Shown in pieces: positions 8,402 through 64,000 of a DNA stretch of 64,000 nt. Below the pieces are notes generated by a model. That model worked only from the letters and a program-made list of their open reading frames with translations, had not been told where the DNA came from and searched no databases. Each line of letters begins with the position of its first letter. The first letter of the stretch is position 1. The translations under genes were made by a program, and so were the position numbers. This DNA is from Candidatus Omnitrophota bacterium. Lineage in GTDB: Bacteria > Omnitrophota > Gorgyraeia > Zapsychrales > Fredricksoniimonadaceae. Where the stretch lies: assembly GCA_016201795.1 (NCBI GenBank), contig JACQCF010000024.1:2115-66114 (forward strand), in the 5' to 3' direction.

Positions 8402-8456
8402 ACAAATCGATTGAAGTTAAAAATGGGCTATGATATATTTGGTTCCTCGATTTATT

Positions 8457-8529
8457 GCTGGCGTAGCTCAGTTGGTAGAGCAGCTGATTTGTAATCAGCA
8501 GGTCGGGGGTTCAAAGCCTCTCGCCAGCT
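8457..8529 (+). tRNA. tRNA-Thr (anticodon TGT)
   Basis: Cloverleaf read by eye. Acceptor gctggcg/cgccagc, D-arm gctcagttggtagagc, anticodon loop tttgtaa, T-loop ttcaaag. Confidence 0.8.
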
Positions 8530-8555
8530 CATTTTTGTTGATTTTTTAAGTTTTC

Positions 8556-8638
8556 GGGCAGTTACCCAAGTGGTCAAAGGGGGCAGACTGTAAATCTGCT
8601 GCGCTTGCGCTTCGGAGGTTCGAATCCTTCACTGCCCA
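8556..8638 (+). tRNA. tRNA-Tyr (anticodon GTA), long variable arm
   Basis: Acceptor gggcagt/actgccc, anticodon loop ctgtaaa, T-arm ggaggttcgaatccttc. Confidence 0.85.
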
Positions 8639-8652
8639 TTGCATTGTTTACT

Positions 8653-8703
8653 GCGGGAGTAGTTCAGTGGTAGAACTCTAGCCTTCTCCCGCCTTTCTGA
8701 GAT
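8653..8703 (+). pseudogene. internally deleted tRNA-Gly copy (5' half through the anticodon 5' stem joined directly to the 3' acceptor strand)
   Basis: gcgggagtagttcagtggtagaactctagcctt is identical to the first 33 nt of the downstream tRNA-Gly. The following ctcccgc c equals its acceptor 3' strand. The ~31 nt between them are missing. Confidence 0.6.
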
Positions 8704-8770
8704 CATTTTTATTGTAGGCGGGATCCCGCCTACCACAAAAAATAATAGAATGGCGGGACAAGCTGTTGAC

Positions 8771-8844
8771 GCGGGAGTAGTTCAGTGGTAGAACTCTAGC
8801 CTTCCAAGCTAGTAGCGACGGTTCGATTCCGTTCTCCCGCTCCA
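8771..8844 (+). tRNA. tRNA-Gly (anticodon TCC), CCA encoded
   Basis: gcgggag...ctcccgc acceptor, anticodon loop cttccaa, T-arm gacggttcgattccgtt, terminal tcca. Confidence 0.85.
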
Positions 8845-8852
8845 AGATTTTT

Positions 8853-10577
8853 ATGATGGTATCTTTCGCAGAACGCCTCAAACGTCTTTTAGCCAATGAC
8901 TTCTTTGCCGCTTTTCTGTTTTTAATTGCCTACCTGTGTACCCATAGTTACATTTACGGTTGGGACGATCAGCACCTGGAAGTGCCACTTCTAAAACACC
9001 TCATTGATCCTTCCCTTTATAAAGGGGATTATTACGTTGAGAGTTTGGCCAGGCATTTTTCCTCTTATCTTTATCCTGTTTTAGCTAAATTTATAACCGT
9101 TGCGCAGGTTCCGGCCGCTTATTTTATTTTGTTTTTAACAGCGCGTTTCTTCATATTTTTTTGGTTGTATAAACTCTGGCAGCTGATTTCCAAAGATAAA
9201 TTTACCTCTGCCTGCGCCATTTTGATGTTTATGGTGCTGGGCCGTACCGAGGAGTTTCTTTACCGTACCTTTTCGCATCAAATCGCGGGGGAGTGCCTGA
9301 TGTTTGCCGGAATTTATTTTTTTTATAAAGAACGCTTCATGCTGGCGGCGCTTATTTTCGGTTTGGGGGCCAATATCCACGGTCTTTACAATTTGTTTCC
9401 CATGCTTTATATGCTGGTCTTTTTGTTGTTTTTTCATCCCCGGCGATGGAGTATGGTTTTAAAGACGGGATTGATTTTTATTATTTCTTGTTTACCGTTC
9501 TTACTCTGGCAGATCCCGAACTCTTGGCATGATAAGTTAATCGGTGCGCCGGTGCCGGTCAGTGAATGGCTTGCGTTGTATCGGAAACAGTGTCCAGAGA
9601 ATTTCTTATTTTGGAACATACCTTGGCCTGAAGCTCTGGGCCATCCGTCTTTCATACTCCAGAGATTGGAGCCCTATCTTTTTTTAATCATGGTGTATGT
9701 TTTTCTTTTAGTTGTTTATCCCCCTTTTCGAGGGGATCGAAAGACTCATGTCGTGGTGATGACAGCATATGCACTCATTGTTATTTCCTGTGTTTTTACC
9801 TATTTGATTCCCAGCCGTTTTGTTTTGGATTTGTGTTTGTTGCGCAATCAACAATTTGTCCGTCTTCTTCTAATGGGCTATGCAACCATTTGGGCTGTCC
9901 AGACGGTTAAGCAAGCCAATCCCCGGCGGGCTTTTGCGGGGGCTTTGTTATTTCTTTTGATAGGATTCGCGGGGTGGAGTTTCTTTGTTATTAAGCTTCA
10001 GAACAACGGGTGGGTCATTATGGCCATGGCGGTGGTGTTCGGTTTTTTAAGTTTGAGACGATGGCCAAGGCTGGAGCTTTATTTACGACGGGCTTTGATT
10101 ATCATTCCTCTTCTTGGCGCCTTTATCTCATTTTGTAAATTTCATTACGATTATCTTCAGGTCAAAAATCATGGGACTGGTTTCTGGCAATTGCAGCGCA
10201 ATTGGGAAGATATGCAGCGCTATGTGCGCGAGCATACCCCCAAGGATGCGATGATTTTAGCTCCGATTAATATGGACATGGGGGGCTTTCGGATTCATAG
10301 CGAACGCAAAGTCGTCGTCTGTATTCGTGATTGCGGGGTTGGCGGTTTTGATTACGGGGCTCTTGTGGAGTGGGATCAACGTATGCGGGACATGAAAGAT
10401 TTTGTCGTTATAACTAATCATTCGGTGGTTCCGGCGGTATTGACGGCGATCCTCAAATATAAGGTGGATTATATTGTGTTTATGAAGTATTATGAGCCTC
10501 CAGGAAATATTTCGGTTTTAAAGAAAATGTACGCCAATGAAGCTTTTTCTTTATTTAAGGTAATGGTGCACCCATGA
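8853..10577 (+). CDS. large polytopic membrane protein with soluble C-terminal domain (GT-C-like candidate)
   Basis: 574-aa ORF. The first ~420 aa are highly hydrophobic. Same architecture as ORF 696..2645. Confidence 0.5.
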   Translation: MMVSFAERLKRLLANDFFAAFLFLIAYLCTHSYIYGWDDQHLEVPLLKHLIDPSLYKGDYYVESLARHFSSYLYPVLAKFITVAQVPAAYFILFLTARFFIFFWLYKLWQLISKDKFTSACAILMFMVLGRTEEFLYRTFSHQIAGECLMFAGIYFFYKERFMLAALIFGLGANIHGLYNLFPMLYMLVFLLFFHPRRWSMVLKTGLIFIISCLPFLLWQIPNSWHDKLIGAPVPVSEWLALYRKQCPENFLFWNIPWPEALGHPSFILQRLEPYLFLIMVYVFLLVVYPPFRGDRKTHVVVMTAYALIVISCVFTYLIPSRFVLDLCLLRNQQFVRLLLMGYATIWAVQTVKQANPRRAFAGALLFLLIGFAGWSFFVIKLQNNGWVIMAMAVVFGFLSLRRWPRLELYLRRALIIIPLLGAFISFCKFHYDYLQVKNHGTGFWQLQRNWEDMQRYVREHTPKDAMILAPINMDMGGFRIHSERKVVVCIRDCGVGGFDYGALVEWDQRMRDMKDFVVITNHSVVPAVLTAILKYKVDYIVFMKYYEPPGNISVLKKMYANEAFSLFKVMVHP

Positions 10578-47413: not shown

Positions 47414-47501
47414 GGAGAGGTGGCTGAGCGGTTGAAAGCGGCGGTCTTGAAAACCGTTATGGGCGCATAGTCCATCGTGAGTTCGAATCTCACCCTCTCC
47501 G
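47414..47501 (+). tRNA. tRNA-Ser (anticodon TGA)
   Basis: ggagaggtggctgagcggttgaaagc..., anticodon loop cttgaaa, long variable arm, ttcgaat T-loop. Confidence 0.85.
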
Positions 47502-48163: not shown

Positions 48164-48187
48164 CCCCCTAGTCTTTGTAATTTTTTG

Positions 48188-48274
48188 GAGAAGTGGCTGA
48201 GTGGTTGAAAGCGGCGGTCTCGAAAACCGTTATCCCGCTTTGCGGGATCGAAGGTTCGAATCCTTCCTTCTCCG
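48188..48274 (+). tRNA. tRNA-Ser (anticodon CGA)
   Basis: ggagaagtggctgagtggttgaaagc..., anticodon loop ctcgaaa, long variable arm. Confidence 0.85.
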
Positions 48275-48829: not shown

Positions 48830-51430
48830 ATGAAACTCAAATTCATTATTTTTAGCCTTTTATCGTTGATCTGTCCGGGCCTTGCCCTGGCTCATCAGCC
48901 CCAGATTTTTAAAACAGTTTTAGACAACGGCCTGACCGTACTCATCCAGGAGGTGCCCTCCAGTGAAGTTATTTCCATTGATGCCTGTGTGAAAACCGGC
49001 TCTGCCGTCGAAGACCGCTATTTGGGCACGGGTATTTCGCATTTTATCGAACATATGCTTTTTAAAGGGACCTCCAAACGACCGGTGGGGGCCATTGCCC
49101 GCGAGGTCCAAAGTTTGGGCGGTACCATCAATGCTTCTACGTCGCACGATTATACGATTTATACACTGGACTTACCCCAAGGTTTCTTGAGTCAGGGACT
49201 GGATATTATCAGCGATATGCTCACAAACTCGAGCTTTGATGCCGACCAAATGCAGAAAGAACGCAAAGTCATCCACGGGGAAATGCGTCTTTATCGTGAC
49301 CGTCCTCATCGGTTTTTAAGTGATTTGGTCTTTCGTCATGTCTATATCCGCCATCCCTACCAGCATCCGATGATCGGTTATCCGATGCTTTTTGATTCCA
49401 TTACTCACGACGAGCTTTATGGTTATTATCAAGAACGTTATATTCCTAACAATATGGTGCTTTCCGTCGCCGGGCCGCTGAAAGCGGATGAAATTTTGCC
49501 GTTGATTAAAGCAGCGTTTAAAGACTTTAAATCCCGTCCTTTTGTACAGCGCCATCTGCCTGCGGAGCCACCTCAATTATTTGGGCGTTATGAGGAGGTT
49601 TATTACCCGACACCATTGATGCATTTTTCTTTGGCTTACCAGGGAGTCAGCGTTTCGGATCCAGATTTGTACGCGCTGGATGTTTTATCCATGGCCTTGG
49701 GCCAGGGGGAGAGCTCGCGGCTTTACAAAGACGTCTACAAAACTAAACATTGGGTAGAGAGTATTTCTGCTTCGAATTTTACGCCGCAGGATCAAGGTTT
49801 TTTTGAAATTGAAGGGGTGATGTCGAAGGATCATCTTCCAGAGGTCCTAGCGTCCTTAAAGGCGACTATCGACGATATTCAAAAACGCGGTCTGTCAGCT
49901 GTAGAGTTAGAAAAAACCAAACGCCAGGTTTCGGCCCAATTTATCTTTGGCAATCAAACCGCCCCCAGCCTGGCCTATCGGGCCGCTACTGATGAAGCAA
50001 TGACCGCAGATGCCAATTTTTCCCGTCATTATGTTGAGCAGGTGAAGCAAGTCACCAACCAAGATATTCAAAGAGTAGCCAACCGTTATTTACAGGATTC
50101 TCATTTAAGCGTGACCGTGTTAAAACCTAAAGCCATGGCCCCTGCGCCGTCAGTGCAGCCACCAGCCGCCGCGCCCGAGAAAATCAAAAAAGTTGTTTTG
50201 GATAATGGCTTAACTATTCTTCTGCACGAAGATCACAGTGTGGCCGTGGTTGCGGTCAAGCTGCTGATGTATGGCGGTACAAGGCAAGAAGACCCTGCCC
50301 GGGGCGGTATTGCTCATTTAACCGCTGATGTCTGGACTAAAGGCACAGGGCGTATGTCCGAAGAACAAATAGCCCAGGCCATGGAACAAAGGGGCGGTTC
50401 ATTAGACAGTTCTTCAGGACACAATACCATGACGGTTAGTATGGATGTTTTATCCGATGACCTGCTTTTTGCTTTGGATCTGCTGGAGGATGTGGTCAAA
50501 AATCCTTCCATGCCACCGGAGGCTATTGACCGCCAGCGTCAAGCGATGTTGACGGCCATGCAAGAGCGCGACGATGATATTATGGACGCTTCTTCCAGGG
50601 CTTTACTTGAAACGCTTTACTTAAAACACCCTTTACGTCTTGATCCTTTAGGTACCAAAGAAAGTCTTTCTAAAATGACTCGTGGGGACATCATCGATTT
50701 TTATCATCGTCTGATGTATGGAAATAATATGGTGATAGCTGTTTTTGGGGACTGTGATTCACCAAAAGTTTTACAGGATTTGAAGAAAAAGTTTGGCTCT
50801 TTAAAGAAAGGACAGGTACAGGTTAAATTATTTTCTGAACCGCCTCCCGAGAAGACCAGATTCAAAGATTTGCGGATGGACAAAGAGCAGGCTTTATTGA
50901 TGATGGCTTTCCGGGCACCAGCCTTCAGGGACCCGGACCGTTTTGGGATGGAAGTGCTGGACACGATTTTAGGAGCCAGTTTAAGCGGAAGGCTTTTTGT
51001 GAAAATCCGCGACCAGTTGGGCCAGGCCTACACCATAAGCTCCAGTTATAGCCCTGATCTAGATACGGGGACTTTTACGCTTTATGTGTTGACGAAGCCG
51101 GATAAAATTGATAGCGTTAAAGGCATTATAATCCAAGAGTTGGAAGATTTAAGAACGAGGGATGTGTCGGCCGAAGAGTTGCAAAGCGCCAAGAATTATT
51201 TAAAGGGTACATTCAAAGGGGAATTATTGACCAACAGCGCCTTGGCTTCCATGAGCAGTCTTGATGAGCTCTACGGTCTGGGTTATAATTTTTACCGTCA
51301 ATTCGACGGGGATGTGGATCAAATTACGGTCCAAGATGTTCGTCGTATGGCCAATCAATATTTAGATATTTCCAAAGCGGCGGTCGTTATTACAAAACCT
51401 AAAACAGCGGACACGAACACTCATGAATAG
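48830..51430 (+). CDS. secreted two-module M16 (pitrilysin/insulinase family) zinc peptidase
   Basis: Signal peptide. Inverted zinc motif HFIEH (HxxEH) in module 1. Second inactive-type M16 module. Confidence 0.8.
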   Translation: MKLKFIIFSLLSLICPGLALAHQPQIFKTVLDNGLTVLIQEVPSSEVISIDACVKTGSAVEDRYLGTGISHFIEHMLFKGTSKRPVGAIAREVQSLGGTINASTSHDYTIYTLDLPQGFLSQGLDIISDMLTNSSFDADQMQKERKVIHGEMRLYRDRPHRFLSDLVFRHVYIRHPYQHPMIGYPMLFDSITHDELYGYYQERYIPNNMVLSVAGPLKADEILPLIKAAFKDFKSRPFVQRHLPAEPPQLFGRYEEVYYPTPLMHFSLAYQGVSVSDPDLYALDVLSMALGQGESSRLYKDVYKTKHWVESISASNFTPQDQGFFEIEGVMSKDHLPEVLASLKATIDDIQKRGLSAVELEKTKRQVSAQFIFGNQTAPSLAYRAATDEAMTADANFSRHYVEQVKQVTNQDIQRVANRYLQDSHLSVTVLKPKAMAPAPSVQPPAAAPEKIKKVVLDNGLTILLHEDHSVAVVAVKLLMYGGTRQEDPARGGIAHLTADVWTKGTGRMSEEQIAQAMEQRGGSLDSSSGHNTMTVSMDVLSDDLLFALDLLEDVVKNPSMPPEAIDRQRQAMLTAMQERDDDIMDASSRALLETLYLKHPLRLDPLGTKESLSKMTRGDIIDFYHRLMYGNNMVIAVFGDCDSPKVLQDLKKKFGSLKKGQVQVKLFSEPPPEKTRFKDLRMDKEQALLMMAFRAPAFRDPDRFGMEVLDTILGASLSGRLFVKIRDQLGQAYTISSSYSPDLDTGTFTLYVLTKPDKIDSVKGIIIQELEDLRTRDVSAEELQSAKNYLKGTFKGELLTNSALASMSSLDELYGLGYNFYRQFDGDVDQITVQDVRRMANQYLDISKAAVVITKPKTADTNTHE

Positions 51431-52781
51431 GATCAAAACACTGGAATTAGAAGTCCTGGTTTTAGCCAAATTAAAAGGGAGAATGGCTTTGCTGGCCTCC
51501 CAAGAAGATCGTGAGCTGATGGTGGCCTCTGCCCTGGAACAAGTGTTAAAGGAGGACCATTCCCAAGAGTTTAAACCAGACCTTTCTTCCGTCGCAGAGA
51601 AAACACGTTTTATTAAAGGGTTTCTTTCGTATGGCGTTATCGAAGAGCTTTTATGTGATCCGGACATCGAAGATATTATCATCAATGCTTTAAAGCCCCT
51701 TTATATTCACCACGCGCAAAAAGGCTTTATCGCCACCGACAAAAAATTCTCCTCCCATCGGGAATTGGAGGTTTTTATTTTGAAGCTCGTTGTTTTTTCT
51801 GGCCGCCATGGTTATAACAAAATCGCCAATTTAGAATTAGCGAATTTAGCCGGGCGGGTCAATATCGTGGATACTCCTCTGGGGCCGCAGTTAACCATTA
51901 GTAAGGCCAAAATTGATCCGTTAAGTATTATCGATTTAATCAAATGCGGCAGCATGAGTTATGAGGTGGCAGGACAGTTGTGGCTTTATATGGAAGGTTT
52001 ATCTATTCGTCCGGCGAATGTGATTATTGCTGGCGGCCCGGGAACCGGCAAAACGACCCTGTTAAATGCCATGTTGAGTTTTATTCCGCCTAAAGACCGC
52101 TTGGTGGTTATTGAAGATACGCTGGAACTCAATACATTTCTGGAAGACAGCTGTTCTCGTCTGGAAACGGATGAAGATTTAGACCTTTCGGATTTGGTCA
52201 AAAACAGCCTGCGCATGCGCCCGGAGAGGGTGATTGTCGGTGAGGTGCGCGGGGCTGAAGCGCGGGATATGATCACGGCCGTTAATATCGGCAAATACTG
52301 TATGAGTACCATCCACGCATTAAGCGCAAGGGAGGCCATTTTACGTTTGGGCAATGAACCCATGAATGTGCCGGATATGCTCATTAATCTTATTGATGTT
52401 TTTATTATTCTTAAACGCTATCATGTGGACGGAAAACTCTTTCGCGTGGTGGAGGAGGTTTCCGAGACCAGCGGCATGGAAAACACAAAAATTTTATTGT
52501 CGCAGGTTTTTAAATACAATTATGAGCAAAAACGCGTGGTAGCGGTCTCGCCGAGCACAATTTACCGCGACCGCCTGGCCCGGGAGACTGGTCTGACGCC
52601 CAGGGAGATTATTGCCGAAACCTGGATCCGTGCCAGTGTGCTTAAGAATTTAGCCGATCGTGGTGTGAATACCATGAAAGAAGTCGCTATGTTCTGTCAT
52701 TATTACACCCACAATCCCGCGGAAGCCATGCATAAAATCGGTTTGGACCGCCAGCGCATGTTGAAGGAAATCAACAAATAA
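51423..52781 (+). CDS. CpaF/TadA/FlaI-like type II/IV secretion-family ATPase (orphan)
   Basis: N-domain GVIEELLCDPDIEDIIIN...GRVNIVDTPLGPQLTISK, Walker A GGPGTGKTT, Asp box RPERVIVGEVRGAEA, His box MSTIHALSAREAILRL. Overlaps the M16 stop by 8 bp. Confidence 0.75.
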   Translation: MNRIKTLELEVLVLAKLKGRMALLASQEDRELMVASALEQVLKEDHSQEFKPDLSSVAEKTRFIKGFLSYGVIEELLCDPDIEDIIINALKPLYIHHAQKGFIATDKKFSSHRELEVFILKLVVFSGRHGYNKIANLELANLAGRVNIVDTPLGPQLTISKAKIDPLSIIDLIKCGSMSYEVAGQLWLYMEGLSIRPANVIIAGGPGTGKTTLLNAMLSFIPPKDRLVVIEDTLELNTFLEDSCSRLETDEDLDLSDLVKNSLRMRPERVIVGEVRGAEARDMITAVNIGKYCMSTIHALSAREAILRLGNEPMNVPDMLINLIDVFIILKRYHVDGKLFRVVEEVSETSGMENTKILLSQVFKYNYEQKRVVAVSPSTIYRDRLARETGLTPREIIAETWIRASVLKNLADRGVNTMKEVAMFCHYYTHNPAEAMHKIGLDRQRMLKEINK

Positions 52782-52849: not shown

Positions 52850-52926
52850 GCGCCTGTAGCTCAACTGGATAGAGCATCAGTCTACGGAACTGAGGGTTGC
52901 AGGTTCGAGCCCTGCCAGGCGCGCCA
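52850..52926 (+). tRNA. tRNA-Arg (anticodon ACG), CCA encoded
   Basis: gcgcctg/caggcgc acceptor, anticodon loop ctacgga, T-arm gcaggttcgagccctgc. Confidence 0.85.
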
Positions 52927-53790: not shown

Positions 53791-53880
53791 GGAGAGGTGG
53801 CAGAGTGGCTGAATGCAACTGCCTGCTAAGCAGTTGGCCGGGCAACTGGCCCCCGGGTTCGAATCCCGGCCTCTCCGCCA
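53791..53880 (+). tRNA. tRNA-Ser (anticodon GCT), CCA encoded
   Basis: ggagaggtggcagagtggctgaatgc..., anticodon loop ctgctaa, long variable arm. Confidence 0.85.
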
Positions 53881-53999: not shown

Positions 54000-55034
54000 A
54001 TGGCAAGTCTAAGATTCAGAAGCGGGCGGTACTACATTGATTATCGGGTCAATGGCCAAAGGTTTCGCAAGGCCACCGGTAAATCGAAACGGATCGCTGA
54101 ACTCGCACTCAAAGACATTGAAGTAAAAATTGAACGCAATGACCTTGGGTTCATAGAAAAAGACGTTGAGTTAAACAAGCTCTTCGAAGAATTCCTCGCC
54201 TACGGCATCACCCACCACGCACCCAAAACACAAAAACGCTACAAAGGCATTCTCGATAATTTTAAAGAATTCCTCAAGAAGTTTCCGTTTATCAAAAAAG
54301 CTTCCCAATTGGATTCAAAATTTTTTGAAGACTATCAAACCTTCCGCAAAGTCAAAGGCGTTAGCAATAAAACAGTCAATATAGAACTCATCTGTTTGAA
54401 GGCCATGTTTAATCTGGCCATCAAATGGAATTACATTTGGGCCAGTCCCACCAAAAATGTCACGCCATTAAAAGAAGAAAACAACAAGAAGCCGCGATTT
54501 TTGAGCAAGGAGGAGTGCAAGATTTTGCTTGAGAATTGTGATGAATGGTTTTATCCAATTCTTTATACTTTTCTGCACACGGGCATGCGTAAAAGTGAAT
54601 TGGAGAATTTGACATGGAGTGATGTTGATTTCGAACGTAAAAAAATCAAAATCCGCTACAAGGATGATTGGAGTCCTAAAACATCCGAGCGCGAAATCCC
54701 CATCAGTAATGGCCTTTTTGAGTTGTTAAAGAAGCGGAAGGAAACCAACCAAATCCGCTCATGCCCGTATGTCTTTCACTTAAAAGGGGACAAGATAGAG
54801 GCCAATTATTTAAGGAAAAAATATCTGCCTTTAACCAAACAGTGCGGCTTCCCGGATGTAACTAAAATCCACAGCCTGCGCCATACTTTTGCCAGCCACC
54901 TGGTCATGAGCGGGGTGGACTTACCAACAGTCAAGAAGCTCATGGGCCATGCGGATATTGAAACAACCATGATCTATTCCCACCTGGCCGATGAGCATGT
55001 GGATAAGGCGGTGGAAAAATTGAGTTTAATTTAA
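54000..55034 (+). CDS. tyrosine recombinase/phage-type integrase
   Basis: C-terminal HSLRHTFASHLVMSGVDLPTVKKLMGHADIETTMIYSHL carries the R-HxxR-Y catalytic residues. Confidence 0.85.
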   Translation: MASLRFRSGRYYIDYRVNGQRFRKATGKSKRIAELALKDIEVKIERNDLGFIEKDVELNKLFEEFLAYGITHHAPKTQKRYKGILDNFKEFLKKFPFIKKASQLDSKFFEDYQTFRKVKGVSNKTVNIELICLKAMFNLAIKWNYIWASPTKNVTPLKEENNKKPRFLSKEECKILLENCDEWFYPILYTFLHTGMRKSELENLTWSDVDFERKKIKIRYKDDWSPKTSEREIPISNGLFELLKKRKETNQIRSCPYVFHLKGDKIEANYLRKKYLPLTKQCGFPDVTKIHSLRHTFASHLVMSGVDLPTVKKLMGHADIETTMIYSHLADEHVDKAVEKLSLI

Positions 55035-55099
55035 TATGAAAAGTTCTCTTGACTATACAAGTTATATGTTGTACACTTTTAGTGTACGGAAAGGCAACA

Positions 55100-55453
55100 A
55101 TGTTAAAGTCTATCTATTATTTTGTTGATATTCGTGGGAATAATCCGGTTAAGGAATTCATTAATAATCTGCCATTGAAAGAGCAAACGAAAATTGATGC
55201 CTATATTGAGGAGCTTAAAAATCAAGGCCATAATTTGCGCAGACCCATGGCTGACTATATAAGGGAAGGAATATATGAATTAAGGCCGGGTCATCATCGA
55301 GTATTTTATTTTTTCTTTTATCGAGAGAGCGCTGTTCTGCTCCATGCGATAAGGAAAAAAACGGACAAAATACCATCGAATGATTTAGATTTATGCCTTA
55401 AAAGAAAAAAAGAATTTGAACATCTTTGGGATATTAATAAACTTGATTCTTAA
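55100..55453 (+). CDS. Gp49/HigB-like RelE/ParE-family toxin
   Basis: MLKSIYYFVDIRGNNPVKEFINNLPLKEQTKIDAYIEEL...GIYELRPGHHRVFYFF...AVLLHAIRKKTDKIP pattern. Confidence 0.7.
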   Translation: MLKSIYYFVDIRGNNPVKEFINNLPLKEQTKIDAYIEELKNQGHNLRRPMADYIREGIYELRPGHHRVFYFFFYRESAVLLHAIRKKTDKIPSNDLDLCLKRKKEFEHLWDINKLDS

Positions 55454-55467
55454 CAGGGAGGTGTAAC

Positions 55468-55794
55468 ATGGCAAACATTCGGTTAGAAAGATTTGAAGAT
55501 CATCTTCAAGAAAAGCTTAAAGATAAAGAATTCCGCCGTCTTTATGAAATTGAGCGGGCCAAGGTGGCTTTAGCTCAAAAGATTGCAGAAATGCGGCAGG
55601 ACAAGCATCTTAACCAAAAGGCCTTGGCCGTTAAGCTTGGGGTATCCCAGCAATTTGTTTCACAAATAGAGACCGGTGAAGGCCGTAATCTGACTTTGGA
55701 TACGCTTATCCGCATAGCCGCATCTTTAGGACATAAAGTACGCCTCTCTTTTCCTAGAAATGTGGGTAACGGCGCGCATCTTGAAGTAGCTTAG
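55468..55794 (+). CDS. XRE-family HTH antitoxin (HigA-like)
   Basis: QKALAVKLGVSQQFVSQIETGEGRNLTLDTLIRIAASLG helix-turn-helix. Confidence 0.7.
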   Translation: MANIRLERFEDHLQEKLKDKEFRRLYEIERAKVALAQKIAEMRQDKHLNQKALAVKLGVSQQFVSQIETGEGRNLTLDTLIRIAASLGHKVRLSFPRNVGNGAHLEVA

Positions 55795-56210: not shown

Positions 56211-56287
56211 AATTATCTTGAGGTTTATTATTTAAAGAGTAAGATGTTAAAAAATGTGGGATCAATTAAAAAGAGGGGTAGTTGTTT

Positions 56288-58093
56288 ATGAGGTTATTTA
56301 AAGGTCTGGTAATTGGGAATATTTGGGGTGGGATTTATGGTTTTGTTGTCGTCAGTTTCTTTTGCAAGATGAGCAACCTCCCCATATTGAAAAATAAAAA
56401 TTTGATCGTATTGTTTTTATTCTTCTTTTGTTTTTGTTCTCGCACCTGGGCTGTGGATCTGCCGGCAGGGCAGGATGCCGCCGCTCAAGCAGAGCGCTAC
56501 AGGTATAATGTTGAGAACCAGAAAAAAATTTTGGAATATAAAAAACCAAAAGGGCTGAAGATAGGGCCCGAGAAAGAAAAAGTCAAACCTGTAAGCAAGG
56601 GGCCGTCTTTTCTACTTAATGGAGTCAATGTGACCGGCTCGAGTGTCTTTAAACCGGAGGATTTCCGGAAAATTTACGGGCTCTACCTCAAAAGACAAGT
56701 CACATTTCAGGATATGCAGGAGGTCGCCGGCAAGATTGAGTCAAAATATAAACAGGAAGGGTACTATACGACGACAGTTTATATCCCTCAACAGAACATC
56801 CAGAATGGGGTCATAGAAATCCGCGTCGCCGAAGGGGAAATGGGGAACTTGAGCATAGAAGGCAACAGATGGTTTTCCGCTGATTTCATAAAAAGATTCA
56901 TTCACGTCAACAGAGGCGAAATACTGAACATTAAAAAGCTGGCGAGGGACATCTTGCGTTTAAACAAGAACCCGGATTTACAAGTCAAGGTGGTGCTTTC
57001 CCAAGGCAGGGTTGCGCAGACCACGGATATTTCATTGAAAGTGGAGGGCCGGCGGCCCTGGCACGTGGGTGTGCAGGTGGATAACAGTGGGACACGCCTG
57101 ACAGGAAAAGTCCGTCCCATGCTTTTTACCCGTTCTTCCAACGTTTCCGGACGGGGGGATATGATTTTTATCAATTCCCTTTACACGGGTGACTCTTTGG
57201 GTGAATCCGTAAGCTATAGCGTACCGGTGGGGACCAATGGCACAAAATTCGGACTTGATGTGACTTATTTCCGGTTGAAAGTGGGCAAGGAATTCAAATC
57301 TTTTAATATTACCGGTGTCTCGCAGATTTATACGCCCCACCTTTCCTGGGAGCTTGCGTTAACGGAAGATTTTGAAGCTTATTATGATCTTGGGATCAAT
57401 ATCAAATCCATAAACAAAAAGCAGGCTGGTACTGTTACGGACAATGGCCAAATGCGCATCCCGTATTTTGCCTTTGATTTTATAAAGACAGACTCCGAGG
57501 GGGTCACGACATTTAGTCCAAAATTTGATTTTGGCACTTCCGGATTTTGGGGCTCTTCCAGACGGAATTATAGCCCTTCCAGCAGGGCGAATACGGGGGG
57601 ATCATTTTTCAAATATCAGCAGTCATTAAACCGGACGCAAAAGATGTTTTTCGACAGCTATGTGACGATACGCACGCAATTACAGCTTGCGTCACATACC
57701 CTCGCGCCATCAGAACAACTTCAGCTTGGCGGGGCGGATTCTATCCGTGGTTATCCCGAAGGAGATTATTCGGCAGATAACGGAGGATATATGAATTTTG
57801 ACTGGTTTTTCCCGTCCTATGTCATTCCTGAAACTTGGAAATTGCCGGGGCAGGAGGCACCCTTACGCCGCCAGATACAACCTGTGTTTTTTGTTGATTT
57901 AGGCGGCGGCAAATTAAAGGAAACTCAGTCAGGGGAAACAAAGGATAAGTTTCTTGCTGGAATTGGAGGTGGCTTAAGTATGAATTTTAAGTCGTTTTCG
58001 CTACGTTTAGATTGGGCCAAATCTATCGGCGATAAACAATCCTCAGGTTCAGGCCCTTCCACATTTTATTTCACTTTCCGGTCGGAAATATAA
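56288..58093 (+). CDS. ShlB/FhaC/HecB-family two-partner-secretion outer-membrane transporter
   Basis: POTRA region LLNGVNVTGSSVF...IEIRVAEGEMGNLSIEGN plus C-terminal beta-barrel ending in aromatic residues. SD agagggg before ATG 56288. Confidence 0.8.
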   Translation: MRLFKGLVIGNIWGGIYGFVVVSFFCKMSNLPILKNKNLIVLFLFFFCFCSRTWAVDLPAGQDAAAQAERYRYNVENQKKILEYKKPKGLKIGPEKEKVKPVSKGPSFLLNGVNVTGSSVFKPEDFRKIYGLYLKRQVTFQDMQEVAGKIESKYKQEGYYTTTVYIPQQNIQNGVIEIRVAEGEMGNLSIEGNRWFSADFIKRFIHVNRGEILNIKKLARDILRLNKNPDLQVKVVLSQGRVAQTTDISLKVEGRRPWHVGVQVDNSGTRLTGKVRPMLFTRSSNVSGRGDMIFINSLYTGDSLGESVSYSVPVGTNGTKFGLDVTYFRLKVGKEFKSFNITGVSQIYTPHLSWELALTEDFEAYYDLGINIKSINKKQAGTVTDNGQMRIPYFAFDFIKTDSEGVTTFSPKFDFGTSGFWGSSRRNYSPSSRANTGGSFFKYQQSLNRTQKMFFDSYVTIRTQLQLASHTLAPSEQLQLGGADSIRGYPEGDYSADNGGYMNFDWFFPSYVIPETWKLPGQEAPLRRQIQPVFFVDLGGGKLKETQSGETKDKFLAGIGGGLSMNFKSFSLRLDWAKSIGDKQSSGSGPSTFYFTFRSEI

Positions 58094-58117
58094 TTATATA
58101 AATATTTTGTTATAGCC

Positions 58118-58145
58118 TTGATTTCTTATCAATATCAGCTATACT
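58118..58145 (+). promoter_or_regulatory. sigma70-like promoter driving the riboswitch leader
   Basis: TTGATT, 16 nt, TATACT. Confidence 0.45.
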
Positions 58146-58171
58146 TTAATTGGTTTTTTGTAAGACAAGAA

Positions 58172-58290
58172 GTTACGATAAAGGTAAACTATTCGAAAGA
58201 ATGGGGCACAAAGCTATGAGGGCCTTCGAACGCTAACACATTGTAGCGGACAAGGTTGCCAGTTGCCGAGCTAATTTAAGCTATGTTTAT
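58172..58290 (+). promoter_or_regulatory. c-di-GMP-I (GEMM) riboswitch aptamer
   Basis: AAAGGUAAACUAUUCGAAAGAAUGGGGCACAAAGCUAUGAGGGCC...UUGUAGCGGACAAGGUUGCC closely parallels V. cholerae Vc2 GGCAAACCAUUCGAAAGAGUGGGACGCAAAGCCUCCGGCC...GUAGCGGGGUUACC. Confidence 0.7.
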
Positions 58291-58342
58291 TAAGCGCAAT
58301 TTAACACTTATTTTGTTGGGCCCAATGCGCGGGTTAAGTTTA

Positions 58343-58376
58343 AACCCCATTTCTGGTTTCAGAAGTGGGGTTTTTT
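58343..58376 (+). terminator. rho-independent terminator (riboswitch expression platform)
   Basis: ccccatttct ggtttc agaagtgggg followed by tttttt, 50 nt before the Cache-protein ATG. Confidence 0.7.
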
Positions 58377-58428
58377 GTTGGAACCAAACTCATTGGATTT
58401 ATAAGAGTTATATTATATAGGACATGGA

Positions 58429-59652
58429 ATGGATTTTCTAAAAAATTTATTACTTGCCAAGCAAGAAATAAACCAGAGAACCCTACGCCTTAAATTAAAG
58501 ATCACGCTATTTGTATCTCTTGCCGCGGTTATATTTTTTTGTATTTTTATAGTTGTTACTTTTTACGTGGGGAAAACGGGACTGCTGGACAAGGCCGTGG
58601 AAAGCCAGAGCGGAATGACCCAGACCCTGGCCTCCGCGGTAAGCGTGGCAATTGAGAAGCAGGTAGAGCTGTTAAAGTTAAACGCGAACTCACAATTTGT
58701 CATCGATGCCGTAAAACAAAATAATTTAAAGTACCGCGTCATGGGCGAGAAGGAGATACGGCGTTACTTGATGGATGAGGACCAAAGGTGGATTGAGGCC
58801 CCTGATGACCATCCCTTGATCAAACAATATTCCGAAAACAAACTTAGCGCGCAATTAAAGGCATTCAAAGTGGAGAATGACGAGGCGGTCAATCTTCTCG
58901 TTACCGATAAATTCGGCGGTTTAGTCGGCTTCACATCAAGGACATCGGGGTTTTATAGTTTTGACAAGGATTGGTGGCTGGGTTCATACGCGGATGGCCG
59001 CGGCAAGCCCTTTATCGGCAACGTGGAATATGATGAACAAAGCAGTTTATGGGCTATGCCCTTTGCCGTTCCCATTGAGGATGAAACAAGGGCCATTATT
59101 GGAATCTATAAAGAACTCATCAGAATCAATACCTTTTTCAAGCCGTTGATGAATTTCAGAATAGGCAGGACCGGAGACGCTGTTGTGGTCGATGATAAAG
59201 CGTATCTGGTGTATCATCCCAAAGCCGCGCCTTTCGCCAATAAATACTGTGAATATGAAGAGCTGCAGAATACCCTGCAGAACGCCAAAAAATGGGGAAT
59301 ACTCAACAGCGCCTATCTTAATCACGGCAAAAAGTTGGCGGCCTACGCGGAGATTAACGTCACTTCTTTGCCGGCATTGGGAGTTAACTGGTTTGTGTTC
59401 GTAGAGCGGGATTTGAGTGAAATATTTATGCCTTTAAATAAGTTGATTTTTATGATGATTCTTATCGGGATCGCGCTGACGATCATATTGGCTTTGTCTG
59501 TATTTATCTTAAGCGCGGTGGAACGTCCCGGTTCCATCCTGCAGGTGATCAAGGACGCGCCGGCACTAAAGACCCATGAAGAAAGCCCTGGCGCTGTTGA
59601 AAAAAGAAGGATGACGCGTTTGCCGAGTGAACAGAAAGAAGAAAATAAATGA
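58429..59652 (+). CDS. Cache-domain-only membrane protein (TM, periplasmic Cache-like sensor domain, TM, short tail; no output domain)
   Basis: TM1 ITLFVSLAAVIFFCIFIVVTFYV. Cache-like motifs FGGLVGFTS...FDKDWWL and PFAVPIEDETRAIIGIYKELI. TM2 LIFMMILIGIALTIILALSVFIL. Confidence 0.6.
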   Translation: MDFLKNLLLAKQEINQRTLRLKLKITLFVSLAAVIFFCIFIVVTFYVGKTGLLDKAVESQSGMTQTLASAVSVAIEKQVELLKLNANSQFVIDAVKQNNLKYRVMGEKEIRRYLMDEDQRWIEAPDDHPLIKQYSENKLSAQLKAFKVENDEAVNLLVTDKFGGLVGFTSRTSGFYSFDKDWWLGSYADGRGKPFIGNVEYDEQSSLWAMPFAVPIEDETRAIIGIYKELIRINTFFKPLMNFRIGRTGDAVVVDDKAYLVYHPKAAPFANKYCEYEELQNTLQNAKKWGILNSAYLNHGKKLAAYAEINVTSLPALGVNWFVFVERDLSEIFMPLNKLIFMMILIGIALTIILALSVFILSAVERPGSILQVIKDAPALKTHEESPGAVEKRRMTRLPSEQKEENK

Positions 59653-62600
59653 GATTGAAAAGAATAAAATACTTTGTATTTATAACCGCGTTTGTTTTCC
59701 TGCAAGTAGGGCTTGTCTTTGCCTTGCCGCAAAATGGGCAAGTGGAATCGGGCAGTGCCGATTTCAGCGAGCCTGACCCTTACACTTTAGTCATCACGGC
59801 CGCGAACAATACCGTCATTAATTTTTCTTCTTTTGGGATTGCCCAGAATGAAACCGTAAAATTTATCCAACCCAGCTCCAGCGCCTCACTCCTGGCCCGT
59901 GTTAACGGACAAACAGCGAGTTATATCAATGGCGGCCTTGCGGCCAACGGCATCTTTTATCTGGTGAACCCCAACGGGATCAATTTCGGACCTTCGGCGC
60001 GGCTCAACGTCAATAGTTTCGTTGCCTCGACTCTGGATATTTCCACGGAGAATTTCCTGGCGCAGAGATATATCTTTGAGCATAAGAACGGCGATCCTTA
60101 CAGCCAAATTATTAATCAAGGGATCATCACTGGCAATAATATCGCTTTTATCGCCAGCGCGGTCGATAACCAGGGCACCGTGATCGGCCGCTTAGGTAAC
60201 GTATTTTTTATATCCGGAGATAGGTCTACTGTCAGCTTTGATACGAAAGGCCTAATTCAGGTGGAAGTTAATAGCCAGACAAGCGGTAAAGTATTTGATA
60301 AAAATGGAGTTGAGGTTAAAGACGCGATAAAAAATTCCGGCACGGTCCAAGGGGCACAGGTGGTCATGGAGGCAAAGACCGCCTCGAATATCTTCAAGAA
60401 TGCCGTTAATCAGGAAGGCATTGTTAAAGCGACCGGATTTAATGTGCAGAATGGCGTCATCAGGGTTGTTGCTGATGGGGATATCCAGGTTTCAGGAAAG
60501 ATGGAGATAGAGAATAACCCATCCGGCCAGCAAATCCAGATTTCCTCTTTGTTTGGCTCTGTAACAGTCAATGCCGAGTTTGATTCCACAGGAAACACGA
60601 CGATCAGCGCCTTTAATGATGTGGTGGTCAATGCGGATATTAAAACGGACTCCGGTAACCTTAACCTTTTAGCAGACGCAGATTTCAATGGCAATGGTTC
60701 TTTCCAGCAGGCAGCAGGGACTGTTATTGCGACGAATAATCCTAACAATGAAGTCGATACCGAGGGTAATCCGATTGGCAATATCACTATTCAGGCCTCA
60801 GGGGCAAGCACGCTGGCAAATATTAATTCCGCAGGTGACTTAATCCTTAGACAGGCAGGTGCACCGGTCACATTCATTCAGCAGCCCGGTTCCACCGTGA
60901 TCACACAAGGTTCACTCATCATCGGTGGCGGTGTTACGCTTGATGCGTCGGATACTATATATCAAACAGGCAAGGACTGGGTTAATTTAGGGACGTTTAA
61001 CCCGGATATCTCCAGCGTGTCTTTGACCTCAAGTCAAAAGGCCAAAGTTATCGGAGATAACACCTTTTATGATTTGACTATTTATGTCCCTGGAAAGGAG
61101 GTGGACTTCGATACTCTTTGGGCGATTACCGTTAATAACAGACTTGAGCTCAAAGGAGGGTATGGGAATTTGTTAGTTTTAAAGTCTTTGAATCCCGGTA
61201 CGCAGTGGCAAATCAATGTAGGAGACTACGACATAGAATACGTGTTGATAGCAGATAGCATTAGTGTTCGCGGGCCCCCTCTGAACCCCATTCATAGCTC
61301 TTCGCTCGGAAACCTCACCAATTGGAACATTGATCCCTATTGGGTTGGGGCCGGGTCAGACAATAATTGGTCTACCGGCGCCAACTGGGATACCGGCACA
61401 GCGCCCACCTCCTTTGACGCAGTTACCTTTGATGGCACAGCCCACGGCGTCAGCGGCGCCAATCCCAATAAAAACTCCTTCATCGACACAGATTTCACCA
61501 TCGCTTCTTTAACTATCAACGGCTATACAGGCACCCTCACCTTAGCAGGCAATTTGAACGTTACAGGTGATATAACTATCAATAGCGGTACAGTAATTGC
61601 CGCAACCCCTAGCGCATTTACCATAACAGCCCAGAATGGCGGCATTTCTATCGGACAAGGCGTTTTAATCTCTGCAGATAGTCTTGCCCTAGTTGCCAAT
61701 AAAAACATTGATATTTCAGGCACTCTTCAGGGGAATTTCATTTCGCTCAATAGTTTAAACGGCCTTACACTTTTAGAAAATGGAAGTTTAATCGATGTTT
61801 CTACCAATGAAGCCGGAGGTATCGGCGGTACAGTGGAGGTTTTAGGTAACCAGGTCGAGCTGCTCGGCACCCAAATCAACGCTTCAGGGCCTAACGGCGG
61901 CGGCACGGTTTTAATTGGCGGAGACTTCCAGGGTAAGGGCACAGTGGCGAATTCCACCATTGTCTATGTGAGCAGAAATGCCCATATTTACGCTGATGCC
62001 ATAGCCCAAGGCAACGGCGGCAAGGTGATTGTTTGGTCTGACTCAACCACGTCTTATTATGGGCATATCAGCGCCAGAGGCGGCCCCCAGGGAGGCGATG
62101 GCGGATTTGTTCAGGTTTCAAGCGCCCTACCATTATTATTTAACGGGTTTGTTGATGCGCTTGACGCCAACGGCAATCCCGGCACATTCATTCTTAATCC
62201 TAACGGCACTACCGGCTATGCGGCAAGCCTTGCAACTGACCTGATCGATTATAATCCAGGAGAAACAGCTACCATTATGGGTTCTGGCTGGAAGCCAGGT
62301 GAGACGGTTTCGCTTGTCATTCAACCAGGTAAGCCTGACTTACAGAACATAACGCTTACCGCTGTTGCTGATGCAAACGGCAATTTTTCTATTTCTGGAT
62401 TCACCCTTCAGCAGGAAGATTTCGGCGTGGCGTTTAGTCTTACAGGAACGGGGCAGTCTTCGGGTCTTGCTGCACAGGCGGCCTTTACGGATACGACCGG
62501 TGTAGCGAGTGTAACCGGAAACTGGGGTAACACCGCGACATGGGGCGGGTCAGCAGTCCCAACAGCCAGTACCGCTGTTACCATTAATCAAGGAATCACC

Positions 62601-64000
62601 GTTACAGTTGCCGATACCGGATCTACTGATGTCGCTGCTTCAGTTGTCATAGGAACGGCTACAGGCAGCGGAACGGCTGTGCTGACATTCAGCACTACTA
62701 GTGACCAGTTAACTGTTTCGGGAACTGTAACTATCGGATTTTCATCAGGGTCTGCGGCCGCTACTCTTAGCATGGTAAGCGGAAGCATTTTAATTTGTAA
62801 CGGTTTTGCACTTGGCGCTACTAGTGGCACAAAAACTTGGACTCCAAGTACGGGTACTGTCCAGCTGGCTGCTACTAATACTTTACCTGCAACCATTTTT
62901 ACTTCATTCGGGAATTTGACTATTACAGGTGGGACAACTTCGTTAGGAGTCGCCGTAATTATTAATAACACCCTGACCATTAACGGCAGCACTGCCTTAA
63001 CTACTACCGCAAGCAATTTCCAATTGACCTTGGATGGAGACTTTACAAACAGCGGTACATTCACCGCCAACGCCTCACCGATCGTTATTGCGGGCACGGC
63101 AACGACTCAGACCATCGCCGGCTTTACTACCACGGGATTAGTTTCCATGACAAAGACTGCCGGCACGGCAACACTTCAAGGTAACGTGGGCGGCGCCGGC
63201 CTGACCATCAACGGTTCGGGTGGAACGCTGAACTTAGGCACAAGCCTGACGCATACATTTACCGGTGTAGTTACCCTTACAGCCGGAACATTAAACGGCG
63301 GATCAAGCACTCTCAAGGAAAACGCCACCAGCACCACGGCCTGGAATGGGACCGGATCATTATTCACCGCAAGCACCTCAACAGTAAGCTTTGGCGGAGT
63401 GGCTCAGACTATTTCTGCAACTTCTACGACATTCAACAATTTGACACTTGCCGGTACGGGTGCTGTAACTTTTTCTACCGGTGATACAATCAACGGAATT
63501 TGGATTATAGGAAACGGGACCAATGCTAATACATACACAGTAACGCCCACCTTGGGCGCTAGCGCCACGCTTGAATATAGCGCCGGTTCATCGGCGCGTA
63601 CTGTAGTCACAGCAGAATGGCCGGCTACGTTCACTTCAACCGGTGGCGTCATTATCGCAGGTACCGGTGCCATTACAATGGGTGCTTCAAAGCAAATGGG
63701 AAATGGTACGGCAAACGTTCCCTTACAAATTAATTCCGGTGCCACATTAACACCCGGTACAAACACCATCACCCTGGAAGGAGATTTTATCAACAACGGT
63801 ACCATAACGAGCGCGGCAACTCCTTATACAATTGCCGGGGCATTAGCCACACAATCCATCGGCGGCTTCACCACAACTGGTTTGGTATCCATGACCAAGA
63901 CCGGAGGCACAGCCACATTTACTGCCGCCGGCTCAACCACCGGTAATGTCAGCGCCGCTGGATTGACCATCAACGGTTCGGGTGGAACGCTGAACTTAGG
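59649..64000 (+). CDS. giant TpsA exoprotein (filamentous-haemagglutinin-like adhesin), 3' end beyond the window
   Basis: ATG overlaps the upstream stop (ATGA). Signal peptide. TPS domain with LVNPNGINFG motif. More than 1450 codons of Gly/Thr/Ala/Asn-rich repeats with no stop before the window end. Confidence 0.8.
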   Translation, partial: MRLKRIKYFVFITAFVFLQVGLVFALPQNGQVESGSADFSEPDPYTLVITAANNTVINFSSFGIAQNETVKFIQPSSSASLLARVNGQTASYINGGLAANGIFYLVNPNGINFGPSARLNVNSFVASTLDISTENFLAQRYIFEHKNGDPYSQIINQGIITGNNIAFIASAVDNQGTVIGRLGNVFFISGDRSTVSFDTKGLIQVEVNSQTSGKVFDKNGVEVKDAIKNSGTVQGAQVVMEAKTASNIFKNAVNQEGIVKATGFNVQNGVIRVVADGDIQVSGKMEIENNPSGQQIQISSLFGSVTVNAEFDSTGNTTISAFNDVVVNADIKTDSGNLNLLADADFNGNGSFQQAAGTVIATNNPNNEVDTEGNPIGNITIQASGASTLANINSAGDLILRQAGAPVTFIQQPGSTVITQGSLIIGGGVTLDASDTIYQTGKDWVNLGTFNPDISSVSLTSSQKAKVIGDNTFYDLTIYVPGKEVDFDTLWAITVNNRLELKGGYGNLLVLKSLNPGTQWQINVGDYDIEYVLIADSISVRGPPLNPIHSSSLGNLTNWNIDPYWVGAGSDNNWSTGANWDTGTAPTSFDAVTFDGTAHGVSGANPNKNSFIDTDFTIASLTINGYTGTLTLAGNLNVTGDITINSGTVIAATPSAFTITAQNGGISIGQGVLISADSLALVANKNIDISGTLQGNFISLNSLNGLTLLENGSLIDVSTNEAGGIGGTVEVLGNQVELLGTQINASGPNGGGTVLIGGDFQGKGTVANSTIVYVSRNAHIYADAIAQGNGGKVIVWSDSTTSYYGHISARGGPQGGDGGFVQVSSALPLLFNGFVDALDANGNPGTFILNPNGTTGYAASLATDLIDYNPGETATIMGSGWKPGETVSLVIQPGKPDLQNITLTAVADANGNFSISGFTLQQEDFGVAFSLTGTGQSSGLAAQAAFTDTTGVASVTGNWGNTATWGGSAVPTASTAVTINQGITVTVADTGSTDVAASVVIGTATGSGTAVLTFSTTSDQLTVSGTVTIGFSSGSAAATLSMVSGSILICNGFALGATSGTKTWTPSTGTVQLAATNTLPATIFTSFGNLTITGGTTSLGVAVIINNTLTINGSTALTTTASNFQLTLDGDFTNSGTFTANASPIVIAGTATTQTIAGFTTTGLVSMTKTAGTATLQGNVGGAGLTINGSGGTLNLGTSLTHTFTGVVTLTAGTLNGGSSTLKENATSTTAWNGTGSLFTASTSTVSFGGVAQTISATSTTFNNLTLAGTGAVTFSTGDTINGIWIIGNGTNANTYTVTPTLGASATLEYSAGSSARTVVTAEWPATFTSTGGVIIAGTGAITMGASKQMGNGTANVPLQINSGATLTPGTNTITLEGDFINNGTITSAATPYTIAGALATQSIGGFTTTGLVSMTKTGGTATFTAAGSTTGNVSAAGLTINGSGGTLNL

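Follow-up and report, generated by a model that had tools for sequence, protein, structure and literature searches.

The locus considered here raises the question of why the gene of a giant secreted protein would be separated from that of its transporter by a riboswitch and by a membrane protein that consists of a sensor domain alone. It occupies the end of a 64-kb stretch of a Candidatus Omnitrophica metagenome-assembled genome (this whole stretch is called the window below), and all of its features, from 56.3 kb to the window end, lie on the forward strand. An initial annotation had read the order as TpsB, riboswitch, Cache-only protein, TpsA, the first and last being the transporter and cargo of two-partner secretion (TPS), and had regarded the configuration as undescribed. 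All of these elements are present at or near the positions it gave, and no paper in the searchable literature describes a Cache protein or a riboswitch for cyclic di-GMP (c-di-GMP) in a TPS locus; full-text searches for a c-di-GMP riboswitch in connection with two-partner secretion or hemagglutinin returned no case. The layout is real and conserved, and apparently undescribed. It is best explained as a module of three genes, confined to a single Omnitrophota clade and built on a type Vb secretion system. For the locus as a whole we propose an Omnitrophota TPS module with a riboswitch-gated operon, in which a kinase-derived Cache partner would act locally on secretion, an explanation to which we give roughly an even chance.

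The two secretion genes themselves are readily recognized. The longest tpsB open reading frame (ORF) runs from 56282 to 58093 and opens with TTG at 56282; the start at 56288 given in the initial annotation is an early in-frame ATG, and the gene stands as proposed there with a start that is likely to be the ATG at 56369, ahead of the signal peptide MSNLPILKNKNLIVLFLFFFCFCSRTWA. The product of 56369-58093 is an Omp85-family TPS transporter, matching Pfam ShlB (E = 3.5e-23, 83 bits, gathering threshold (GA) 22.7), POTRA_2 (E = 3.7e-17, 62.4 bits, GA 24) and POTRA (36.8 bits) and carrying the loop-6 (V/I)RGY motif as SIRGY; its homologs at 50-74% identity have 566-585 residues. The 5' part of tpsA (59649-64000) shows 1450 codons and is still open at the window end. 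It encodes the signal peptide MRLKRIKYFVFITAFVFLQVGLVFA, followed by LP, then a TPS domain at residues 51-284 (approximately nt 59799-60500; E = 1.4e-25, 91.2 bits, GA 33.5) with the NPNG motif in the form LVNPNGINF (NPNGI), and beta-helix-like repeats downstream of it. The tpsA relatives are giant genes, because products of at least 8830 and at least 10,006 residues are in both cases still cut by contig ends; one relative contains 14 PATR repeats. Only 1.55 kb separates tpsB from tpsA on the same strand, and by its domain content this is a type Vb secretion locus for which TpsB-dependent export of TpsA, which we infer to be an adhesin, is predicted.

Is the intervening material an accident of one genome? 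We collected related loci through protein searches, by looking up contigs and by scanning collections of genomes and metagenomes for patterns, and obtained 45 of them, about 25 distinct, all attributable to Omnitrophota; synteny was called from a phmmer screen of every ORF in these loci. Those with a Cache-only protein are referred to as class 1 and those with a histidine-kinase-like (HK-like) protein in its place as class 2. The tpsB–Cache–tpsA order is kept in every related locus with enough flanking sequence except L036, and because the same order recurs in this way, the arrangement is far beyond chance. Among the Cache-only loci, tpsB stands upstream in 16 of the 17 with enough upstream flank (L036 again being the exception), and a TPS-domain ORF stands downstream in all 17 with enough downstream flank, which bears out the Cache–TpsA adjacency to which the initial annotation had drawn attention. 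The translational coupling it had noted is likewise as described, an ATGA overlap at 59649-59652 made up of the tpsA ATG (59649-59651) and the Cache TGA (59650-59652). Across nine class-1 loci read in detail, the distance from the Cache stop to the tpsA start ranges from -11 to +3 nt, with the four-nucleotide ATGA overlap in five. In the HK-like loci the sensor gene is coupled to tpsB instead, with a gap of 8-15 nt. The sensor gene, coupled to tpsA or, in the HK-like class, to tpsB, thus always stays within the TPS locus.

A few loci depart from the simple order. The Cache and TpsA sequences form one open frame with no stop in L027 (3889-11061), the Cache tail running into the TpsA signal peptide; the fusion is either natural, being topologically viable if signal peptidase cuts it, or an assembly error. 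Two tandem Cache-only paralogs precede tpsA in L021 (4776-7206, behind the riboswitch) and in L033 (157-1693). In L036 (212-4328) the sequence ahead of the Cache gene comprises the C-terminal, proline-rich part of a further giant beta-helix ORF and a 140-residue ORF. The Cache gene has a promoter of its own here, no tpsB occurs within 3 kb, and the layout may represent tandem Cache–TpsA units.

The Cache link has clear bounds. L051 (6546-16125) holds a tpsB (50% identity), a c-di-GMP-I riboswitch at 8406-8491, a terminator and a tpsA with a product of 2553 residues, and no Cache gene. Because the L049 and L050 loci also have no Cache gene, the link is restricted to one TpsB sub-clade, and the idea that the Cache protein is a universal partner of Omnitrophota TpsB was rejected on these three loci. 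L049 (7131-7603) contributes two further observations, an orphan tpsB (61% identity) with no tpsA nearby and, on the opposite strand, a c-di-GMP-I riboswitch (7521-7603) upstream of a 98-residue gene.

We turn to the leader that separates tpsB from the Cache gene. An alignment of 12 class-1 leaders contains a conserved promoter, a 5' leader, the aptamer, a linker of approximately 70 nt, a terminator and a post-terminator leader of approximately 55 nt. In the window a consensus scan places a sigma-70-like promoter, TTGATT-16-TATACT, at 58118-58145, and the related class-1 leaders have TTGAC(A/T)-17-TATA(T/C)T at the same position. The c-di-GMP-I aptamer follows at 58173-58270 (RF01051, 56.6 bits, GA 35, E = 2e-8), and the alignment to the family shows the GAAA tetraloop hairpin. 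When these nucleotides are aligned by hand to Vc2, the canonical ligand-contacting G20, A47 and C92 (Vc2 numbering) would correspond to positions within AAGGUAAAC, CACAAAGC and UUGCCGA, respectively. A GGC-variant riboswitch was considered and rejected, with A at the variant position in the window and an RF03167 score of 55.3 bits, below the GA of 59. Downstream of the aptamer an expression platform is present: the conserved linker at 58271-58341 (CTATGTTTAYYAAGCGC ... AATGCGCGGGTTAAG), in whose region RNAalifold gives a GCGC/GCGC stem, leads to an intrinsic terminator at 58342-58379 with a 14-bp hairpin (58342-58373) and a U tract. The terminator sequence GGGGTTTTTTGTTGG is invariant across the leaders, and its stem shows compensatory changes. 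As a separate observation, in L010 (1-470) a group II intron RNA, recognized by Rfam D1-D4 matches, ends at the position of the terminator U tract, where CTACTCGAT abuts GGAATGAAAGCC; by analogy this resembles class C introns, which home to intrinsic terminators, and it hints that the hairpin may be a real terminator.

In Rfam scans of the related loci the aptamer stands without exception at the start of the transcription unit whose last gene is tpsA, with the terminator following. It lies between tpsB and the Cache gene in the window, L003, L013, L015, L021 and L027, with a partial copy at the contig start of L023; in L007, L041, L042 and L044 it separates the kinase-like gene from tpsA; and in the Cache-less L051 it lies directly between tpsB and tpsA. 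The association of the riboswitch with TpsA therefore extends beyond that of the Cache gene. The aptamer is absent from roughly half of the loci. In four of them, L001 (9724-10000), L011 (5738-6000), L016 (5764-6000) and L024 (5721-6000), different internal deletions have removed the aptamer and kept the terminator, the promoter and the post-terminator leader, with intact ORFs; in L043 aptamer and terminator are lost together, and a sub-clade of six (L005, L012, L014, L028, L029 and L032) has only a short promoter-bearing spacer. Judged from these alignments, the aptamer has been deleted several times independently. What the initial annotation described as a riboswitch-gated Cache–adhesin unit under c-di-GMP control therefore needs qualification: the riboswitch is there, but it is not tied to the Cache gene (L051) and is missing from about half of the loci. 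The class-2 leaders hold some additional features. Upstream of the aptamer in L042 (8070-8133) are three tandem 21-nt repeats (AGTTAGGAATAAAAAGTTGT), which occur also in the leaders of L041, L043 and L044 and are retained in L043 after the loss of its aptamer; a related AGTTAG motif recurs in class-1 leaders, and these elements may be candidate protein-binding sites. In L044 an IS200-like transposase gene (7952-9724, reverse strand) lies between the kinase-like gene and the riboswitch.

The direction in which the switch works is the least certain step of our consideration. That the leader binds c-di-GMP, and that binding affects read-through, is predicted, and we lean slightly towards an OFF switch, in which c-di-GMP would promote termination. 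We searched for a switching helix with minimum-free-energy folds of nested lengths, RNAalifold with and without the terminator 3' arm, an additive-energy comparison and RNAduplex against shuffled sequences. By RNAduplex, the aptamer strand composed of the 3' side of P2, J2-3 and the 5' side of P3 pairs with the 5' arm of the terminator at -26.5 kcal/mol in L003 (shuffles -15.5; 0/500) and at -26.8 kcal/mol in L015 (shuffles -17.4; 3/500), and both of these antiterminator helices are stronger than the terminators of their own leaders. Such a helix would constitute an OFF-switch architecture, the ligand-bound, folded aptamer letting the terminator form. Several pairings found by hand (GGUAAAC/GUUUAYY, CUUAAC/GUUAAG and one between the 5' leader and the post-terminator region) did not hold across all leaders and were dropped; the first of them is perfect only as a remnant hairpin in L011.

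A number of observations weigh against this leaning. In the window the antiterminator complementarity is -16.3 kcal/mol, not above chance (106/500 shuffles), and for the window, L013, L021 and L027 the comparison of RNAduplex energies with shuffles yielded no antiterminator of significance in which the aptamer takes part. Thermodynamic folds always give the terminator. The four aptamer-less leaders keep it as well, which neither an ON nor an OFF model explains; a terminator that leaks, or an antitermination factor acting in trans, might account for them. Finally, analogy with other adhesins under c-di-GMP control predicts an ON switch.

Such an ON switch, in which high c-di-GMP, as in the attached or sessile state, would block termination and induce the Cache protein together with the giant TpsA adhesin, is a close competitor, and we put its chance only a little short of even. 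The absence of a significant antiterminator in the window, L013, L021 and L027 makes the terminator look like the default state. Adhesins and pili induced by c-di-GMP, with which an analogy may be drawn, include V. cholerae Vc1–gbpA, C. difficile CD2831/pilA1 and B. thuringiensis Bc2–cap. The TPS adhesin system CdrAB is induced by c-di-GMP through FleQ (PMC6584795). However, the terminator lies wholly outside the aptamer, 70 nt downstream of it in class 1, and we found no sequence by which the folded aptamer would prevent it from forming; the strong aptamer–terminator-arm helices of L003 and L015 are, moreover, of the OFF type.

The protein encoded at 58429-59652, 407 residues long and listed with identical sequence at NCBI as 'cache domain-containing protein', is the second unusual component. 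It consists of a short N-terminal cytoplasmic segment, a first transmembrane helix (TM1), a periplasmic domain of two PDC modules (dCache), a second transmembrane helix (TM2) and a tail of 46 residues. Against Pfam dCache_1 (PF02743) it scores 33.7 bits (E = 3.6e-8), below the GA of 45; ShlB, POTRA_2 and the TPS domain exceed their gathering thresholds. An AlphaFold2 model from the single sequence had a mean predicted local distance difference test score (pLDDT) of 41 and was not used; the model built with 50 homologs (pLDDT 81.6, predicted template modelling score 0.73) shows a long helix that runs from the N-terminus via TM1 into a stalk, two PDC modules, and a second long helix at 334-361. 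The long stalk helix and two PDC modules between two transmembrane helices are the marks of a dCache domain. The tail is disordered in the model and nothing else follows TM2, that is, no part of a sensor histidine kinase. The model thus upholds the Cache-only architecture proposed in the initial annotation, and the protein has a genuine double-Cache sensor fold with no output module.

What the sensor might bind is less clear from its motifs. Relative to the amino-acid-binding motif (R/K-x-W-Y, Y-x-D and a distal D), K180-x-W182-W183 and Y201-x-E203 are present and the distal Asp is absent, as judged from a weak alignment to Mlp37 (E ~0.03); an amino-acid sensor of the dCache_1AA type was rejected on this incomplete motif. 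A LapD-type receptor was also rejected, with a weak structural match, no GGDEF or EAL domain, and neither the HAMP-GGDEF-EAL arrangement nor LapD_MoxY_N found.

Protein searches returned 45 Cache-only homologs at 50-74% identity, all of approximately 400 residues, of which more than 40 full-length ones share one end point and a conserved tail motif, S-x-LQVIK. Within this clade TM2 is the most conserved segment (majority frequency 0.83), with the PDC modules at 0.78-0.79, and the whole protein appears to be under constraint by purifying selection. When a library was clustered at 50% identity and matches were taken at E ≤ 1e-30, the Cache-only clade formed one cluster, and the other 168 clusters were nearly all proteins of 550-1300 residues; this sensor subtype would thus normally carry outputs. 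According to a preprint, over 90% of Cache domains occur in fusion with signalling modules (PMC12889525). We note that L009 (6455-7582) and the proteins P0050-P0069 represent a second, unrelated Cache-only membrane family of approximately 376 residues, at 20-27% identity and in a non-TPS context.

Where did the output go? Relatives at 30-46% identity occupy the same slot between tpsB and tpsA and have 635-660 residues with dCache_1 (55-60 bits, above the GA of 45), HAMP and HATPase_c. Because these relatives carry HAMP and HATPase_c in the slot, the Cache-only form descends from a Cache–HAMP–kinase-like protein of the same position. In a neighbor-joining tree of the sensor and transmembrane region, constructed with no bootstrap, all Cache-only proteins fall into a single clade, which branches from within a grade of HK-like proteins of the same locus; this placement implies that the output was lost once. 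The kinase part was degenerate already before this loss. HisKA is detected in one of eight HK-like relatives, the most distant one (L019), most of the others having no recognizable HisKA or H-box; L007 and L041 lack the H-box His, and several of these proteins have a G2 box that has degenerated. We looked for response regulator or GGDEF genes beside the HK-like loci and found none. The initial annotation had allowed that relatives with an output domain would indicate simple truncation, and such relatives do exist, but the Cache-only proteins are a conserved single clade, and we rejected simple truncation or a pseudogene on this conservation and monophyly. L019 (2121-5221) itself has a canonical Cache histidine kinase (HisKA 63.7 bits, SHELRTPL) after tpsB, followed by the start of a second, class-2-like Cache protein; judged from this locus, the two kinds of gene, kinase and kinase-like, may at one time have lain side by side as paralogs.

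Let us now consider how these parts might work together. In our reading tpsB is its own unit, and the promoter directly 3' of tpsB drives a leader with the c-di-GMP-I aptamer and intrinsic terminator, at which c-di-GMP would decide early whether RNA polymerase enters a very long downstream operon. This operon encodes a double-Cache protein of the inner membrane and, coupled to it in translation, the giant exoprotein TpsA. What has been conserved in the former would be the function of its periplasmic sensor domain and of its membrane helices, not phosphotransfer. The protein might be a periplasmic partner that binds a ligand, is produced together with TpsA and gates or assists the transfer of this giant cargo from Sec to TpsB. 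Because its gene is always coupled to transporter or cargo, and once fused (L027), local action on the secretion system is the most likely role of the Cache protein.

Not everything fits this proposal comfortably. Contact of the Cache protein with TpsA, TpsB or Sec is hypothetical. TPS loci without a Cache gene (L050, L051) exist in related Omnitrophota, and the protein is therefore no general requirement of secretion. The 168 closest sensor clusters nearly all have output domains, the periplasmic domain resembles a common dCache sensor of small molecules, and the high conservation of TM2 would fit transmembrane signalling to some other partner equally well.

In a rival scenario, which we consider somewhat unlikely, the Cache protein would be a co-sensor that binds a periplasmic ligand and signals via TM2 to a membrane protein encoded elsewhere, such as a histidine kinase or a diguanylate cyclase, thereby regulating the TPS system rather than assisting it; in this role it might feed back on the c-di-GMP pool read by the riboswitch. 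A typical dCache sensor domain whose most conserved segment is TM2, nearest sequence clusters that are almost all multi-domain signalling proteins, ancestors with HAMP and HATPase_c, and the resemblance of K-x-W-W and Y-x-E to part of known ligand-binding motifs are all consistent with it. On the other hand, no locus has a linked partner gene, and the kinase-like relatives had already lost HisKA and the H-box, from which it follows that phosphotransfer signalling was dispensable; tight coupling to a giant structural gene, with one in-frame fusion, is more typical of a stoichiometric partner. That the 407-residue gene is the decaying, functionless remnant of a truncated histidine kinase is very improbable and appears excluded by the conservation pattern, since, for all that same-slot relatives retain HAMP and HATPase_c, its many full-length homologs form a single clade with a common end point and tail motif, its start, stop and coupling to tpsA are conserved, and tandem duplicates have been retained.

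Returning to the locally acting Cache partner, one may carry the proposal further. The dCache protein might be the dedicated third component of a 'three-partner' type Vb system, a ligand-binding gatekeeper in the inner membrane, derived from a pseudokinase and coupling an external or host-derived cue to the Sec-to-TpsB handover of a cargo of more than 10,000 residues, with the riboswitch as a second, cytoplasmic checkpoint ahead of a transcript of more than 30 kb. We offer this stronger version as a speculation that is unlikely to hold in full.

How does this arrangement compare with known systems? Published Omnitrophota giant genes come from the same phylum and are likewise very long ORFs, and around them lie PilZ genes together with secretion-like loci of type II/IV (West-Roberts et al., 2023, preprint; complete-genome preprint of 2026); these two preprints make no mention of TPS or two-partner secretion, ShlB, POTRA, Cache or riboswitch. 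The nearest functional analogue is CdrAB of Pseudomonas aeruginosa, which is under c-di-GMP control through FleQ and LapD/LapG and resembles the present locus in pairing a TpsA-type adhesin with a TpsB transporter and in its c-di-GMP-dependent production (PMC6584795). It differs in that control there involves FleQ and LapD/LapG proteolysis and here an aptamer in the leader RNA, and in its gene order, cdrA–cdrB with no Cache gene, against tpsB … tpsA with one. LapD/LapG-like genes were not seen in the flanks examined. The Bordetella FhaB/FhaC adhesin locus adjoins the bvgAS sensor kinase locus, where BvgS has Venus flytrap (VFT) domains and a working phosphorelay with BvgA, and transcription is divergent. 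Both cases place a TPS adhesin locus beside the gene of a periplasm-sensing kinase, but here the dCache protein is inside the operon, is H-box-less and kinase-like or has no output at all, and has no response regulator nearby. The riboswitches of Vc1–gbpA and Bc2–cap belong to the same aptamer family (GEMM-I), and share the terminator platform and the position ahead of a surface-protein gene; the gene controlled here differs in being a giant type Vb tpsA preceded by a Cache membrane protein. The LapD–LapG–LapA system is similar in its use of c-di-GMP, in the giant adhesin at the cell surface and in an inner-membrane protein whose periplasmic domain is PAS/PDC-like. Unlike the dCache_1 sensors of histidine kinases and chemoreceptors (DctB, PctA, Tlp3 and PscC), the window protein has no cytoplasmic output, and its amino-acid motif is partial.

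The surroundings of the locus can be described briefly. Between a tRNA gene (53791-53877) and tpsB lie a tyrosine integrase (54000-55034), a Gp49/HigB-like toxin (55049-55453) and a helix-turn-helix antitoxin (55468-55794), which look like a small element integrated between the tRNA gene and the TPS locus. L001 has no such integrase element and shows a tRNA gene, a 71-residue ORF and then tpsB. Upstream of the tRNA gene, the window at 48830-52781 encodes a fused M16 peptidase pair (one ORF of 866 residues) and a T2SS-E/PilB-like ATPase. Further tRNA genes are located at 8457-8841, 47414-47501, 48187-48274 and 52850-52923.

Irrespective of the details of the model, several aspects of this locus deserve attention. 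It offers a direct link to c-di-GMP at the RNA level, and we found no earlier report of a c-di-GMP riboswitch on a type Vb system; the repeated deletion of the aptamer across loci provides natural variants with which the role of the RNA could be probed. The loci display, within one operon, the passage from a sensor kinase through a pseudokinase to an output-less sensor. Some of the very long proteins of Omnitrophota appear to be TPS substrates, which suggests an export route besides the type II/IV-like loci in these ultra-small, host-dependent bacteria. Two-partner secretion is regarded as the simplest of pathways, with one cargo and one transporter; if our proposal is true, a co-produced inner-membrane protein with a sensor fold would add to it a further component and a possible control point.

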